From: Candidatus Kerfeldbacteria bacterium
GTDB lineage: Bacteria; Patescibacteriota; Patescibacteriia; SBBC01
Direction: 5' to 3'
Length of the DNA stretch: 44,432 bases
NCBI GenBank assembly: GCA_043799405.1
Contig: JAZDNT010000004.1
Location: 70,206-114,637, forward strand
The notes under the pieces are model-generated. The model did no database searches and had not been told where the DNA came from. It saw only the letters and a program-made list of their open reading frames with translations. The translations under genes were made by a program, and so were the position numbers. This document shows positions 1,758-33,263 of the stretch, in pieces (the stretch's first letter is position 1; each line of letters starts with the position of its first letter).

Positions 1758-4706
1758 ATGCCAATTCCTCATTTACGGCCGACCGAACACAACCCGCCAG
1801 CGAATCAATACCAGCGCTCGTGGCGGGACCTGCAACAGCGGTCACCCGCCGCGCTGACAGGATTACTACGTTTTTTGTCTACAATCATTGGCGCGGCGTT
1901 TCGTCCTGTGAAAAAGCTATTTAAGAAACCTCGAAAAAAGAGAGGGTTCGTCCGGTTTTGGCTTCCGCTCGTGGGTATTGTTCTGCTGTTGTTCGTTTTT
2001 TCAATTTTCGTTGTCTTCGCCTGGTTTTCAAGAGACCTGCCAGACCCGGACAAGATCTCTGATCGGACCGTCGCCCAATCAACGAGAATTTACGCACGCG
2101 ACGGCAAAACCCTCCTCTATGAAATCCACGGGGATCAGCGGCGCACCGTTGTTAGACTTGAAGACATAAGCCCAGACGTTGTAAATGCGACTATCGCCAT
2201 CGAAGACAAGGACTTCTACAAACACGGCGGCATTTCGATCGTAGGCATCATTCGCGCCATCTGGCGAGACGTGACGACCGGATCGACGCAGGGCGGCTCA
2301 ACGATTACCCAGCAATTCGTCAAGAATGCCATACTCACCAGCGAAAAGAAGATCACGCGAAAGATCAAGGAGTGGGTGCTTGCATATCAAATTGAAAGGC
2401 GTTTCACGAAACAACAAATTCTGAAGCTCTACTTCAATGAAATTCCGTACGGCTCGAACGCGTACGGCGCTGAGGCGGCGTCTGAAACATACTTCGGCAA
2501 GCCGGCAAAAAACGTGAGCCTTGCCGAGGCAGCGATCCTCGCTGCGCTGCCGCAGGCTCCTTCGTTCTACTCCCCCTACGGCAACAATGCCGATCGTTTG
2601 CTCAGCAGGGCGCACTACATCCTCGACATCATGGTAAAACAGGGGTACATAACGCAAGATCAGGCGGACACGGCAAAAAAAGAAGAGGTTCTGAAAAACG
2701 TCAAACCAAAGCGTGAAACGATCATCGCCCCTCACTTCGTTTTCTACGTACGCGACCTCTTGGCAGAAAAGTACGGGGAACGCGTCGTTGAGCAAGGCGG
2801 CTTGCGCGTGGTAACGACGCTCGATATCGACAAACAGCTTGCTGCGGAGGGCGCGATCGCTGCCCAGGCAGAAACCAATCAGAAAAAGTATAAGGCATCC
2901 AACACCTCGCTTGTTTCAATCGATCCGAAGACGGGCCAGGTGCTCGCAATGGTCGGATCGAAAGATTACTTCGATGCCTCGATCGATGGCAACGTAAACG
3001 TCGCTCTTTCTCTACAGCAACCGGGCTCTTCTATAAAACCGATCGTGTACGCGACTGCGTTCAGCCGGGGGTTTACGCCGGAAACGATACTCTTCGATCT
3101 TTCGACGCACTTCAAAATGTCAGGGGCTCCCGATTACGTTCCGCACAACTACGACGGAAAGGAGCGCGGACCGCTTCCGATGCGTAAAACGCTTGCTGGG
3201 TCGCTCAATATTCCTGCCGTGAAAACACTTTTCCTTGCTGGCATTGACCGCGTCATCGATCAAGCACAAAAGATGGGGTACACGACGTGGGAAGACCGTT
3301 CTCGGCTCGGCCTTTCTCTCGTGCTTGGGGGTGCCGAAGTTAAGCTCATCGAGCATACCGCAGCGTTCGGTTCGCTTGCTGCCGATGGCGACCTTCATAC
3401 TACAGCGCCGATCATGAAGGTTGAGGACAAGAACGGAAAACTTCTAGAAGAGTACAAGGATTCGAGCACGAACGTGCTCGATAAGAACGTTGCGCGTACT
3501 GTTTCAGACGTCCTGAGCGACAATAAAGCGCGCAGCTTCATCTTCGGAGAGCGCAACTGGTTAACGCTTCCTGATAGGCCTGTTGCGGCAAAGACGGGCA
3601 CAACTCAGGAATTCCGCGATGCATGGACTGTCGGGTATACGTCGGCGACCGGAAAAGGGCCTGCGATCGTCACCGGCGTCTGGGTCGGCAATAACGACAA
3701 TTCGCCCATGAGGTCCGGGGCGGACGGCTCGGTCGTGGCCGCACCGATCTGGAACAGTTACATGCGAAAGGCAATGGCTAATACCAAAGCGGAATCTTTT
3801 AAAAAGCCCGTTCCGTCGAAAACGACGAAGCCGATACTGCAGGGGAGGCTTGAGGGAGAGGCGCCGATCAAGGTTGACGCGATCACTGGTAAGGAAATTC
3901 CTGCCTCCTGTCTTGATAAGTGGCCGCAGGGATTCATCGTCGAAAAGTCCGTCAAGGCCGTTCATACTATCCTCTACTACATTGACCCGAATGACCCAGC
4001 CGGCCCGCCACCCCCCGATCCAACAAAAAACCCGCAGTTCTCCTCGTGGGATGCCCCGATCCAGCGGTGGGCTAAGAAAAACGGGTATGTAGAGAGCCGC
4101 CCCCCAGTGGAGTCGTGCTCTTTGCGCACCGAGGCTCCGTCAGTGCTCATTGTTGCTCCCGTCCAAAATGCGACCATCCGCGATACGAGCGTTAGCGTGA
4201 GCGTTACTACCCCGAGCCCGAAACCGATTATTGAGATTGCCTACTACCTTGATGGCGTCGCCCTTGCCCAACCGTCTGCCGCGGCAACAACGGCAACCGT
4301 GAATCTCGAGAGTGTGCCCAACGGCTACCACACCATTCGCGTCGTTGTTAAAGACGACGTTGGAAACACCGGGGAAGCGAGTGTCAGTATTAACATCTTA
4401 CGCGACCTTTCGGCTTCGAGTATATACTTCTTATCGCCCCCGTACAACGCTTCGTTTCCGGCTGGCTCCCAGATCGACCTTCGAGCGTTCGTATTCGACC
4501 CTTCTGGAATTGCGAGCTCTTCTTTTCAGGTAACCGCCCCCGATGGTTCTACGAGTACTATCGAGGCGGCCGTTGGTGGCGACTCGATTGCCTCTGCGAC
4601 GTGGCAGTCTCTATCGCTTCAGGGATCATGTCGCGCTGTATTTAAAGCGGTTACAGTAAGCAGTAAAACTCTTCAAACAGACGCCCTGTTGTTCACTCTT
4701 CTCTAG
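1758..4706 (+). CDS. Class A penicillin-binding protein (PBP1A family) with C-terminal Ig-like extension
   Basis: TM anchor; GT51 motifs EDKDFYKH, GGSTITQQ, RKIKE; transpeptidase SxxK (SSIK), SLN, KTGT. Confidence 0.95.
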   Translation: MPIPHLRPTEHNPPANQYQRSWRDLQQRSPAALTGLLRFLSTIIGAAFRPVKKLFKKPRKKRGFVRFWLPLVGIVLLLFVFSIFVVFAWFSRDLPDPDKISDRTVAQSTRIYARDGKTLLYEIHGDQRRTVVRLEDISPDVVNATIAIEDKDFYKHGGISIVGIIRAIWRDVTTGSTQGGSTITQQFVKNAILTSEKKITRKIKEWVLAYQIERRFTKQQILKLYFNEIPYGSNAYGAEAASETYFGKPAKNVSLAEAAILAALPQAPSFYSPYGNNADRLLSRAHYILDIMVKQGYITQDQADTAKKEEVLKNVKPKRETIIAPHFVFYVRDLLAEKYGERVVEQGGLRVVTTLDIDKQLAAEGAIAAQAETNQKKYKASNTSLVSIDPKTGQVLAMVGSKDYFDASIDGNVNVALSLQQPGSSIKPIVYATAFSRGFTPETILFDLSTHFKMSGAPDYVPHNYDGKERGPLPMRKTLAGSLNIPAVKTLFLAGIDRVIDQAQKMGYTTWEDRSRLGLSLVLGGAEVKLIEHTAAFGSLAADGDLHTTAPIMKVEDKNGKLLEEYKDSSTNVLDKNVARTVSDVLSDNKARSFIFGERNWLTLPDRPVAAKTGTTQEFRDAWTVGYTSATGKGPAIVTGVWVGNNDNSPMRSGADGSVVAAPIWNSYMRKAMANTKAESFKKPVPSKTTKPILQGRLEGEAPIKVDAITGKEIPASCLDKWPQGFIVEKSVKAVHTILYYIDPNDPAGPPPPDPTKNPQFSSWDAPIQRWAKKNGYVESRPPVESCSLRTEAPSVLIVAPVQNATIRDTSVSVSVTTPSPKPIIEIAYYLDGVALAQPSAAATTATVNLESVPNGYHTIRVVVKDDVGNTGEASVSINILRDLSASSIYFLSPPYNASFPAGSQIDLRAFVFDPSGIASSSFQVTAPDGSTSTIEAAVGGDSIASATWQSLSLQGSCRAVFKAVTVSSKTLQTDALLFTLL

Positions 4707-29971: not shown

Positions 29972-31984
29972 ATGGTGAATCGAAAAGCCAGCAGCGACGC
30001 CCGGAGACGAGCCTCCCGAAGCGGGAGGGTCTTTTTTCTCGTTGCTGCGGGCGTCATCGCGCTGCTTGCGGCCGCTGACGCCGGCATACAGAAACTGTAC
30101 GCCGAAAAGGTGTTGCCGAGAGTTCGTGTCGGGGACATCGCAGTCAGCGGCATGAGGCCAACAGAAGCAGAAGCAGTGATCAATCGCGCGATCGATTCCG
30201 TCAAGAACGAAGGGCTCGTCATACGGTACAACGAGTCGACAATCCCGCTCGATTTTACCATAGCTGACTCAAGCGGCTTCGGCCTTCCTAAAGAACTGTT
30301 ACGGTACGACGCAGAAGCAACGCTTAAAGCTGTATTCGCGTACGGACACCACGATTCTTTTTTCCGTGATACATTCGATAGGCTGAGGATTCTCTTCGTC
30401 TCCGTCGTTATAACACCCTCGTACACTGCGGATGCTACCGGTACTGCTGACGCGATCACCGGCGCGCTTGCAAAGTACGAGCGTCCAGTCGTAGAACCGG
30501 GATATATATTGAAAGGAAGCACGATAACGGTAACGACCGGAGAATCCGGTAGCGTTTTTAATAGCGACGCGATCGCTAACGAGGTTGTTAAGAGAATTCA
30601 GCGATTGTCTCGAACAGAAATTTTCGTGAACCTTGAGCCAAAAGATCCTTCGGTGACCGATGAAGAAGCGCGAGGGCTCGTCAGCGCTGTTCAACGTCTC
30701 GTCGATCGGGGATCGATAGAGCTCCGTGCTGGCGAATTTAAGGGCTTACTAAAAGCATCGCAGTACGTCACGTGGCTAACGCCAGTTCGGCAGAGCAAAG
30801 GAGCCGTTTCTATTGATGCTTCCGGAAAGAAGGTTAGAGAGTACCTTGTCGGCCTCCTTCCGGAAATTAATGTACCGCCGAAAAATGCGCGGTTCCAGCT
30901 CGATAACGGTAGCATAAAAGAGCTTCAGTCAAGCAGCCCCGGAACAGAACTTGACGTCGATGTAGCAGTATCAGCTGTTTCGAAAGCGATCATCGACGGT
31001 AAAAGTTCAGTATCGCTCGCCATGAAGACCGTCTCGCCGCAAGCTACCGCCGGCAGCATCGTAAATCTCGGCATTGTTGAGAAGGTCGCGACCGGAACGA
31101 CGAATTTCGCCGGAAGCCCGACGAACAGGAGGTACAATATCAAGGTCGGATCCGATCTTCTCAACGGTCTTCTCATTAAACCCGGCGAGGAGTTTTCCCT
31201 GATCACGGCGGTCGGTCCCGTAGACGCGACGAACGGGTACCGTCAGGAGCTCGTGATAAAGGGGGATCGCACCATTCCGGAATTCGGCGGCGGCCTCTGC
31301 CAGATCGGTACGACGTTCTTCCGTCTCGTCTTGAACGCCGGACTCCCGGTGCTTGAACGCCAAAACCACTCGTACCGCGTTCGCTACTACGAGCCTCCGG
31401 TCGGAATGGACGCGACGATTTATGAGCCGAAACCAGATCTTCGATTTAAGAACGACTACACCGGCTACCTCCTTGTCCAGACGCACGTCGATGGAGATAA
31501 CCTGACGTTCGAGTTCTGGGGCAAGAAGGATGGCCGGACCGTAACGACGACGCCGCCGCGCGTGTACAACGTCGTTCCGGCACCGCCGCAGCTTACCATA
31601 GAAACAACGGATATTCCTCCGAAAACAACGAAGTGCATTGAAAAGGCGCACGTCGGTTCTGATGCGGTGTTCACCTATACTGTGACGCACGCTGACGGAA
31701 CGAAGAAGAGCCAGGAGTTTAAGAGTCACTACAAACCGTGGCGAGCCGTATGTTACCTCGGGGTGAAGTCGCTCTCGCCGTCGGGTGGCTCTGGTACCAC
31801 GAACACCAACTCAAACACGAATTCAAATGCAAATACGAACACGACGGCTAATACGAACGCGGGCGCGAACACTAACGCTTCTCAAAATAGTAACGCGAAC
31901 ATAAACGCTCCGGCGAATACGAACACGGAACCGTTGGTCAATACGAATACCGCGGCTGATACCAATATAAACGCAGTCCCATAA
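29972..31984 (+). CDS. VanW-family surface protein with putative peptidoglycan-binding repeats and an Asn/Thr-rich tail
   Basis: TM anchor; NRRYNI, PGEEFS, GGGLCQIGTT, ERQNHS, G.DATI, DLRFKN; low-complexity C-terminus. Confidence 0.88.
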   Translation: MVNRKASSDARRRASRSGRVFFLVAAGVIALLAAADAGIQKLYAEKVLPRVRVGDIAVSGMRPTEAEAVINRAIDSVKNEGLVIRYNESTIPLDFTIADSSGFGLPKELLRYDAEATLKAVFAYGHHDSFFRDTFDRLRILFVSVVITPSYTADATGTADAITGALAKYERPVVEPGYILKGSTITVTTGESGSVFNSDAIANEVVKRIQRLSRTEIFVNLEPKDPSVTDEEARGLVSAVQRLVDRGSIELRAGEFKGLLKASQYVTWLTPVRQSKGAVSIDASGKKVREYLVGLLPEINVPPKNARFQLDNGSIKELQSSSPGTELDVDVAVSAVSKAIIDGKSSVSLAMKTVSPQATAGSIVNLGIVEKVATGTTNFAGSPTNRRYNIKVGSDLLNGLLIKPGEEFSLITAVGPVDATNGYRQELVIKGDRTIPEFGGGLCQIGTTFFRLVLNAGLPVLERQNHSYRVRYYEPPVGMDATIYEPKPDLRFKNDYTGYLLVQTHVDGDNLTFEFWGKKDGRTVTTTPPRVYNVVPAPPQLTIETTDIPPKTTKCIEKAHVGSDAVFTYTVTHADGTKKSQEFKSHYKPWRAVCYLGVKSLSPSGGSGTTNTNSNTNSNANTNTTANTNAGANTNASQNSNANINAPANTNTEPLVNTNTAADTNINAVP

Positions 31985-32144
31985 CAGAACACCGCCCGGT
32001 AAGAGCGGCGTACTGTAAGTCGCGACGTAACTCAGGGGCAAGAAGATTATTCATTGGATGAGCCGAGGTTGCCCCAGGCCAACCAGTGTATAGTCCCCAT
32101 GCTTGTCGTGCCCCCGAGATACCTCGCGGCTTTTTAAGCGAACT
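31983..32144 (-). ncRNA. Unassigned structured small RNA (about 160 nt)
   Basis: Promoter TTGACA-17-TGC-TACTAT (32177-32149), long irregular hairpin, terminal 9-bp hairpin; no credible ORF. Confidence 0.6.
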
Positions 32145-32240
32145 GGACATAGTAGCACGACCGATAAAGCCTGTCAAGACCTGGCACAAAATCACTTTTG
32201 TTACATGGGTAGGCACGTGGTATGCTGAAATAGAGCTTTT

Positions 32241-33263
32241 ATGGCGACAGAACGAATCGTATCCGAGGAGCTGAAAACAGAGGATCAGACGATCGACCTC
32301 ACTTTGCGTCCGAGGACGCTTGCTGAATACGTCGGGCAGGACGTCATAAAAGCGAACCTAAAGATCGCTCTCACCGCCGCGAAGAAGCGAAAAGAGGCGC
32401 TTGAGCACGTATTGCTTCACGGGAACCCAGGACTCGGAAAGACAACGCTCGCCTACGTTATTGCGCATGAGCTGGGCGTCGGCGTTCGTATAACGAGCGG
32501 TCCAGCAATTGAACGCGCTGGCGATCTTGCCGCGATCCTTACAGGCTTAAGCGACGGCGACATCCTTTTTATTGATGAGATGCACCGATTGAACCGAACG
32601 ATCGAAGAGGTGCTCTATCCAGCAATGGAAGACTACAAGCTCGACATCGTCGTCGGTAAAGGCCCAGGCGCCCGGACGATCCGGCTCGACCTTCCACGGT
32701 TCACGTTGATCGGTGCAACGACACGGATGAGCGTCATTTCCGGACCGCTCCGTGACCGCTTCGGCCTGACCTTCCGGCTCGACTACTACCGCCCAGAAGA
32801 CATCGAGAAGATCGTGAAGCGTTCAGCGTTGATCCTTAGCGTTACGCTTGCTCCTGATGCTGCGCTCGAGATCGCGAAGCGCGCACGCCGTACGCCCCGC
32901 GTCGCGAACAGGCTTCTGAAGCGCGTGCGTGACTACGCCGCAGTAAAGGGAGACGGGAATGTCAGTAAGGCGCTCGCAATCGAAGCGCTTCGCTCTCTCT
33001 CGATCGATGAGCTCGGTCTCGATGAGATCGACCGCCGGATCCTCGAGACGATCATTGATAAGTTCCATGGCGGACCGGTCGGATTAGGAACGGTCGCAGC
33101 GGCAGTGTCCGAAGAAACGGAAACGATCGAAGAGGTATACGAGCCGTTCCTTCTGCAGCTGGGATTTCTTCAGAGGACCCCGCGCGGACGAACCGCGACG
33201 GCGGAGGCGTATCGGCACCTCGGACGCCGCCCTCCTCCAGAGAGCCAACATTTAAAGGTCTAG
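32241..33263 (+). CDS. ruvB: Holliday junction branch migration helicase RuvB
   Basis: [68 protein letters not shown]. Confidence 0.98.

Follow-up and report, generated by a model that had tools for sequence, protein, structure and literature searches.

A rod-shaped RNA with an invariant bulge in the ABY1 class of Patescibacteria: evidence for a new family and its candidate functions

A small RNA gene is described here on the minus strand of a 44,432-nt stretch of DNA from a Candidatus Kerfeldbacteria bacterium (assembly GCA_043799405.1, contig JAZDNT010000004.1, positions 70,206 to 114,637); the whole stretch is called the window, and its numbering is used unless stated otherwise. The gene lies in the spacer 31985-32240 between two plus-strand genes, a vanW-like gene and ruvB. 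Comparative sequence analysis leaves us close to certain that it is a real RNA gene and that its family, which matches no described RNA family, is new. A preliminary description of the locus had hesitated between a short 6S-like promoter mimic and a new class of small RNA (sRNA) of the candidate phyla radiation (CPR). The second proposal was borne out, as the element is an independent and non-coding gene with covarying helices, is absent from Rfam and occurs in about 90% of the ABY1 genomes; the first was not, for reasons given below. As to its role, we tentatively favour a trans-acting RNA that would bind a conserved protein.

Covariation, fold and strand of the RNA

When the 206-nt unit was compared by BLAST with 60 relatives, 18 genomes, drawn from its family, order and class, gave matches (an additional weak one proved spurious), and the identity was strongest in a core at query positions 68-145. 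RNAalifold, applied to a plain MAFFT alignment of the 18 sequences, returned 33 base pairs, 25 of which showed compensatory double changes. A covariance model, R1, was then built from this alignment; with it, 99 further matches were gathered, and 97 distinct sequences were analyzed. In these, 89.8% of the cells assigned to helices were paired, compared with 63.1% after column shuffling and 42-56% when the partners were slid by 1-3 columns. The covariation score was 0.69 (control, 0.20), and double changes were present in 27 of the 33 pairs. The preliminary description had made its case depend on a conserved structure, and such a structure was found, the outer helix covarying across about 100 genomes.

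The family consensus is a nearly continuous rod, in which an outer helix P1 of about 20 bp is followed by a bulge facing a single U, then by P2, P2a, P3, P4 and P5, and finally by a tetraloop. Compensatory changes were observed in 18 of the 20 P1 pairs, and the two pairs that close the bulge (C-G and A-U) are invariant. In the window copy, 18 of the 20 positions of the P1 arms are paired, one G.U pair among them, which agrees with the 20-nt arm pairing, valid on the minus strand through a G-U pair, that had been described before. The relatives do not preserve the inner pairings proposed at that time (AUGGG with CUCAU, and GGUUG with CAACC in an apical hairpin); P2, P2a, P3, P4 and P5 covary there instead. 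Of the "asymmetric bubble" placed above the outer helix, the asymmetry was retained; it is not a bubble, and consists of ten nucleotides on one side facing one U on the other. The P2a stretch, between P2 and P3, is unpaired in the model, yet its two sides co-evolve: the median duplex energy was -4.1 kcal/mol with the true partner and -0.9 kcal/mol when partners were swapped between sequences.

The strictest conservation concerns the bulge and its surroundings. Like nine of the ten bulge nucleotides, the flanking C-A (before) and G-G (after) are invariant in the alignment of 18 sequences; the tenth nucleotide, a U, is replaced by C in two of them. On the 5' side the alignments contain an invariant CACGACAAGCA(U/C)GG and on the 3' side an invariant UCUUG, while the outer arms vary but stay complementary. 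In P2, one G.U pair is present in 97 of the 97 sequences and a second one in 85. The 80 loci collected by pattern scan carry the motif by construction, so that invariance is claimed on the strength of the alignment built from BLAST hits and of the genome searches with the model.

The 171-nt stretch folds with a minimum free energy of -77.4 kcal/mol (z = -5.7 against dinucleotide shuffles), but the opposite strand folds nearly as well (z = -5.5), so that folding energy cannot decide the strand. The decision came from the non-Watson-Crick cells: 444 G.U/U.G cells were counted against 84 A.C/C.A cells, or 192 against 84 without the invariant P2. This excess indicates that the selected strand is the minus strand of the window, which upholds the earlier strand call. 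A small protein gene was ruled out. No conserved reading frame was found, since the frames opened by the conserved AUG extend over 3-59 codons, the distance from this AUG to UCUUG shows a random phase (36/31/29), and two relatives carry ACG in its place.

The RNA of the window is an independent gene running from its own promoter to its own terminator. Its transcript is predicted to measure about 160 nt and to extend on the minus strand from about 32144 to about 31982, the two ends being deduced from the promoter and terminator positions. The near-perfect promoter TTGACA-17-TGcTACTAT reported beforehand is indeed present on this strand; it matches 10 of the 12 consensus positions with a 17-nt spacer and has the TG of an extended -10 element. 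A promoter of the same type (a TTGACA-type -35, a spacer of 16-18 nt and TAnnnT, at most 70 nt upstream) was found at 53 of 96 homologous loci, where 0.85 loci were obtained in shuffles and none on the reverse complement. The leader is of variable length in the relatives, with 9-41 nt from the end of the -10 element to the core. At the other end, a U-run directly follows the rod in 44 of 97 loci, and elsewhere a separate hairpin with a U-run is found. In the window, the final 9-bp hairpin of the preliminary description was recovered at 32011-31989 and is followed by a U-rich tail. The coordinates of all these elements are given in Table 1.

Table 1. Positions of the RNA gene, its structural elements and the adjoining genes in the window
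Feature	Position	Strand	Remarks
Whole RNA gene including promoter	31980-32177	-	promoter to terminator
-35 hexamer TTGACA	32172..32177	-	sequence
Extended -10 TGcTACTAT	32149..32157	-	TG at 32157-32156, TACTAT at 32154-32149; TGnTAnnnT aligns in relatives
Predicted transcription start, A32144 or G32143	32141..32144	-	deduced from its spacing to the -10 element; short 5' leader to 32134
Conserved RNA core, 116 nt	32018..32133	-	match of covariance model R1, 109 bits (genome C1:102223-102338)
P1, 5' strand CGCGAGGUAUCUCGGGGGCA	32109..32128	-	20 nt, ends in invariant C-A
One-sided 10-nt bulge CGACAAGCAU	32099..32108	-	9/10 bases invariant in the 18-sequence BLAST-derived alignment
P2, 5' strand GGGGA	32094..32098	-	pairs with UCUUC
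Apical domain	32047..32093	-	P2a weak in the window copy; P3-P5 covary
P3, GG/CC	32083-32084 with 32056-32057	-	covaries
P4, GGCC/GGCU	32077-32080 with 32061-32064	-	covaries
P5, GGG/CCU	32073-32075 with 32066-32068	-	covaries
Tetraloop GCAA	32069-32072	-	variable in the family: GCAA, GAAA, UUCG or UUUU
P2, 3' strand UCUUC (32042-32046) and single opposing U (32041)	32041..32046	-	UCUUG invariant
P1, 3' strand UGCCCCUGAGUUACGUCGCG	32021..32040	-	20 nt
Terminator hairpin and U-rich tail	31980..32011	-	9-bp GC-rich hairpin at 31989-32011; tail abuts the vanW stop codon
vanW-like gene, convergent neighbour	29972..31984	+	670 aa; domains PG_binding_4 and VanW
ruvB, divergent neighbour	32241..33263	+	adjoins the RNA in 16/97 loci

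Comparison with Rfam 15 returned no family for the window, whether at gathering scores or at E <= 10, and none for 18 diverse loci of the family. The cmscan check suggested in the preliminary description therefore gave no match even at this permissive threshold, the 6S models included. Its statement that signatures of the signal recognition particle (SRP) RNA, of transfer-messenger RNA (tmRNA) and of ribonuclease (RNase) P RNA are lacking was also confirmed, by the missing Rfam match, by the absence of a helix-8 motif and by ARAGORN, which found only a tRNA-Glu elsewhere in the window and no tmRNA at the RNA locus. RNase P RNA, marked by conserved CR-I/CR-V regions, and tmRNA, marked by a tRNA-like domain with a tag reading frame, were rejected as identities of the RNA on these results; a canonical RNase P RNA candidate was located elsewhere in the genome (about C3:75170) with a regular expression. 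In the genome as a whole, ARAGORN detected 48 tRNAs and no tmRNA, and SmpB is encoded at C2:185132-185563; the tmRNA gene may be missing because the assembly is only 88% complete. A full-text search of the literature for the motif and for non-coding RNAs of the CPR yielded nothing relevant.

Distribution and genomic setting

Model R1 detected the RNA in 182 of 201 ABY1 genomes, or in 167 of 180 when only those of high quality are counted. The carriers nearly always have a single copy, and one copy is present in the genome studied here. A dispersed repeat, such as a repetitive extragenic palindrome (REP) or a miniature inverted-repeat transposable element (MITE), was ruled out, with one copy here and one in nearly every genome. 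The carriers found by pattern scan belong to the Kerfeld-, Falkow-, Uhr-, Komeili- and Magasanikbacteria, which we take to be members of the GTDB class ABY1; the family of the window is Kerfeldbacteria. A second model, R2, was run on a phylum-wide sample of Patescibacteria and matched 25 of 25 ABY1 genomes and 9 of 376 others, the latter count being a lower bound because stricter filters were applied in this sample and only part of the first-look candidates were scored. In the homologues outside ABY1, the rod and its GGCA...UGCC closure are retained, as are a G.U-rich P2, a perfect TTGACA-17-TAnnnT promoter and a terminator; five of them also have a convergent vanW neighbour.

In some ABY1 lineages, two rods are found in tandem behind one promoter. 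In three such loci (L213, L214 and L215, at about 100-510 of each) a conserved linker, TTTGTCACCTTCCAT...TTTGAGAAA, connects the two rods, and the first rod of L213 and L215 has AUAGGA instead of AUGGGA. The two tandem copies of a fourth locus (L212, about 120-430) are nearly identical.

Furthermore, four viral contigs of IMG/VR match the family model with E below 1e-6 (L193, L195, L196 and L197). On L196 (37.9 kb, region 2290-4640), the RNA stands behind its own TTGATT...TGCTATTAT promoter, in the leader of an operon made of an open reading frame (ORF) of 59 aa, groES and groEL. A leader of about 170 nt precedes the RNA, no terminator was seen between the rod and the operon, and genes for a ParB-methyltransferase and a small terminase subunit lie nearby. 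L195 and L197 carry YqaJ, ParB-like and PAPS-reductase/DUF3440 genes. On L193 (84 kb), a full-length member of the family at 2456-2575 lies in a context of 68% G+C, unusual for the CPR, which hints that the family, or the phages carrying it, reach beyond ABY1.

Concerning the host neighbourhood, a vanW-like gene adjoins the RNA in 73 of 97 loci, 60 times in convergent orientation, and the gaps are mostly below 100 nt. Of the 84 loci whose downstream flank reaches 1.2 kb or more, 66 (79%) have vanW. Upstream of vanW, hsp20 is present in 38/97 loci; clpP occurs within 3 kb in 26/97 (upstream on the same strand in 18) and the gene of RNase J is a neighbour in 10/97. The divergent arrangement with ruvB emphasized in the preliminary description holds for the window but not as a rule, given the far more frequent vanW neighbour (Table 1). 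In one sub-clade of at least 10 genomes, the order is RNase J, the RNA and a convergent DAGK-like gene in place of vanW, and 10 other genomes have the RNA downstream of vanW and in the same orientation. These two arrangements suggest that the RNA is not bound in cis to vanW. No vanW gene was found near the phage-like copies that were checked.

The vanW-like protein of the window extends about 150 residues past its VanW domain, and this C-terminal part (31500-31984, plus strand) is encoded by degenerate AACACGAAC-like repeats and looks like a tail of low complexity. On the opposite strand, the same repeats open long reading frames that are spurious, such as 31007-31729.

Candidate functions

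The reading that we prefer, although it stays short of an even chance, is that of a trans-acting RNA that would bind a conserved protein, with which it would form a ribonucleoprotein or which it would titrate. A recognition platform for the protein would be made up of the bulge together with the two pairs that close it and the G.U helix P2, so that the RNA would present one fixed surface to a conserved macromolecule; the variable rod would have no part beyond giving rigid support and, in many genomes, terminating the RNA itself. This proposal is drawn from the invariance of the bulge, of the closing pairs and of the G.U pairs amid helices whose sequence has turned over, and from the housekeeping-type distribution, the constitutive-type promoter, the tandem copies and the carriage by phages. 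The tandem rods would provide several binding sites per transcript. An action in trans is suggested by the loci with DAGK-like or co-oriented neighbours, and also by the fact that no conserved complementarity was found between the bulge and either the starts of neighbouring genes or ribosomal RNA (rRNA).

A more specific form of the proposal is somewhat more doubtful. The RNA may be a subunit of an undescribed housekeeping ribonucleoprotein of SRP-less Patescibacteria (ABY1 and some neighbouring lineages), with the bulge and G.U helix as a new protein-recognition motif; the particle would matter enough that phages of these bacteria bring a copy of their own.

Four points weigh against a protein-binding role. 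Outside ABY1, the bulge is replaced or shrunk to about 3 nt, and one family has only CCG, so that the bulge is dispensable in the wider family. No protein common to the phage contigs that bear the RNA, or common to these contigs and the host flanks, was found. The close association of the RNA with the 3' end of vanW may stem from a role that has so far escaped notice. Finally, ligand-binding pockets and base-pairing seeds typically show equally strict invariance.

Two further proposals were set aside. The genome encodes a CsrA homologue (C2:101054-101236, 54% identical to E. coli CsrA), and no CsrB-type RNA with repeated GGA was seen; a role of the RNA as a CsrA sponge was rejected, as GGA is not conserved in the family and occurs once in the window core. 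A link to the heat-shock response, to which the proximity of hsp20, clpP and, in the phage, groESL had pointed, was not supported, since the host groES is not complementary to the RNA and the promoter of the RNA has no CIRCE (controlling inverted repeat of chaperone expression) element. In the host groES-groEL operon itself (C2:330666-330780), a perfect CIRCE operator, TTAGCACTC-N9-GAGTGCTAA, lies downstream of a consensus promoter, and ABY1 appears to use heat-shock control of the HrcA type.

The remaining explanations are all improbable; in decreasing order of probability, they are a base-pairing seed, a 6S analogue, a ligand-binding or catalytic RNA and a cis element of the vanW locus.

The least improbable of them is a base-pairing sRNA, in which the bulge would be the seed for one or more target RNAs that include all or a portion of AUGCUUGUCG, spanning a start codon for instance, and the rod would protect and present this seed. 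A single-stranded and invariant bulge whose complement contains AUG, in an RNA with its own promoter and terminator, fits the typical architecture of an sRNA. However, invariance throughout a class would require an equally invariant target, and in this genome no plausible gene start was found to have an exact 10-nt complement, the 10-11-mer matches being few and scattered. The start regions of vanW, hsp20, clpP, ruvB and rnj paired no better with the bulge than with shuffled seeds, and the duplex energy with the rRNA regions (-14.2 kcal/mol) lay between the 0.1 and 1 percentiles of the background (-15.6 and -12.7 kcal/mol, about 2,000 windows). A seed would also leave the invariance of UCUUG on the opposite side and of the G.U pairs unexplained, and tblastn with E. 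coli Hfq gave no match in this genome. An rRNA mimic or a guide complementary to rRNA was discarded, as the duplex energies did not differ from the background and no 10-11-mers were shared with the assembled parts of the rRNA.

Slightly less probable is a miniature 6S-like RNA, whose rod would mimic an open promoter for the sigma-70 holoenzyme and whose bulge would be the template for a product RNA. The rod shape, the strong constitutive-type promoter and the near-universal single copy in the class are those expected of a 6S RNA, whose role may moreover be unfilled in this group, for canonical 6S RNA was not detectable in 41 relatives; carriage by phages would suit a tool for the takeover of transcription. 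Nevertheless, no 6S model matched the region 31850-32300 (E <= 10), 18 diverse loci (E <= 0.5), 41 whole genomes (E <= 0.1) or the genome of the window itself. The loop is one-sided, with 10 nt facing a single U, and the segment above P2, being a co-evolving helix (P2a), leaves no strand for the non-template -10 region; a two-sided bubble resembling an open promoter is therefore absent. 6S RNAs are 150-200 nt in length, with an upstream stem longer than about 20 bp. The core described here measures only 116 nt, and its apical arm comprises about 20 bp, P2a included. In addition, the would-be template is invariant in sequence, unlike that of 6S RNAs, and is reduced to about 3 nt outside ABY1. 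On these grounds the promoter mimic of the preliminary description is not supported.

We consider unlikely, to a still greater degree, that the RNA senses a ligand or is catalytic, with the bulge and the G.U helix as a pocket for a metabolite or metal or as an active site, in a stand-alone sensor or in a cis element of a leader. A strictly invariant internal loop among covarying helices is the usual signature of an aptamer core, some lineages have the tandem arrangement, and the rod of L196 lies in the leader of the small-ORF-groES-groEL operon with no terminator between them. Yet in the hosts the RNA almost never has a co-oriented gene downstream, 60 of 97 loci having a convergent gene next to it; the rod itself often doubles as the terminator, a competing alternative fold is not evident, and no riboswitch or ribozyme of Rfam matched.

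Lower again stands the possibility of a cis element of the vanW locus, that is, a terminator shared by both directions, a cis-antisense RNA on the 3' end of hsp20-vanW, or both. It draws on the frequent and close adjacency to vanW, with the same layout in homologues outside ABY1, and on the plus strand of the window, where TTTTT comes directly after the rod's reverse complement (32105-32145, GCGGCTTTTTAAG); an A-run before the rod and a U-run after it are present together in 24 of 97 loci. From these sequences, the rod may also terminate the convergent vanW transcript. Much of the linkage may, however, come from genome compactness, under which convergent genes with a common terminator are not easily parted. 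For a terminator, an invariant 10-nt bulge and invariant G.U pairs would be superfluous. The G.U bias reveals selection on the strand opposite to vanW, the RNA has its own conserved promoter, and the DAGK-like partner of at least 10 genomes, the co-oriented loci of 10 others and the phage-like copies found apart from vanW all speak against this explanation.

A divergent SRP (4.5S) RNA, brought to mind by a hairpin RNA of about 115 nt present once per genome and nearly universally where RF00169 found no match (this genome, 41 ABY1 relatives and 251 genomes of the phylum), has virtually no chance of being the answer: as far as sequence analysis goes it was refuted by the missing model match, by a negative scan of this genome for the helix-8 motif with its GNAR tetraloop and symmetric AGCA-bearing loop, by the absence of the SRP54-type GTPase domain of Ffh and FtsY (PF00448) from all 41 ABY1 genomes (controls 14/14), and by tblastn and motif scans of the 1.03-Mb assembly, in which neither Ffh nor FtsY was found although SecY, SmpB, RnpA and CsrA were. 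The two SRP subunits are reported to be absent from many CPR bacteria (PMC8080830).

Whichever function applies, ABY1 is a major uncultivated lineage that has lost SRP and has an additional RNA of near-universal, single-copy grade, whose bulge is invariant over class-level divergence and which no catalogued family matches. Few stable RNAs are of this grade (rRNA, tRNA, RNase P RNA, tmRNA, SRP RNA and 6S RNA), and each of them marks a core machine. Identification of the partner of the new RNA would probably expose a part of the core cell biology of the CPR, with transcription, RNA turnover, proteostasis or envelope biogenesis as candidates. The family is also a potential new marker RNA for the annotation of ABY1 genomes.

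Comparison with known RNAs

With SRP (4.5S) RNA (RF00169), the ABY1 RNA has in common the size and single hairpin, an asymmetric conserved internal loop as a would-be protein platform, and the housekeeping-type distribution. It differs in that the GNAR-capped helix-8 motif is missing, the conserved loop lies far from the apex, and the lineage has neither Ffh nor FtsY.

6S RNA (SsrS; RF00013 and RF01685) is likewise a stand-alone rod with a strong housekeeping promoter, found in one copy (or as two rods) throughout a lineage and presumed to bind protein. In contrast, the ABY1 RNA has no match to these models, a one-sided bulge in place of the two-sided central bubble and a shorter core, and its loop is conserved in sequence, that of 6S RNA mainly in shape.

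The sRNAs that titrate proteins (CsrB/RsmZ type) and the Y RNAs resemble the RNA in its preferred, protein-binding interpretation: they act in trans and bind a protein through a conserved unpaired motif carried on helices, and tandem units exist in some ABY1 lineages. Unlike CsrB/RsmZ, each ABY1 rod has a single motif and GGA repeats are not conserved, despite the CsrA homologue in the genome; unlike the bacterial Y RNAs, the ABY1 RNA has no tRNA-like domain.

Finally, raiA, OLE and ROOL are orphan classes of structured RNA that emerged from comparative genomics. Like the ABY1 RNA, they were known at discovery by their covariation, conserved loops and distribution, ahead of their function. The ABY1 RNA is much smaller and simpler than these, being a single rod, and is limited to the Patescibacteria, mainly to ABY1.

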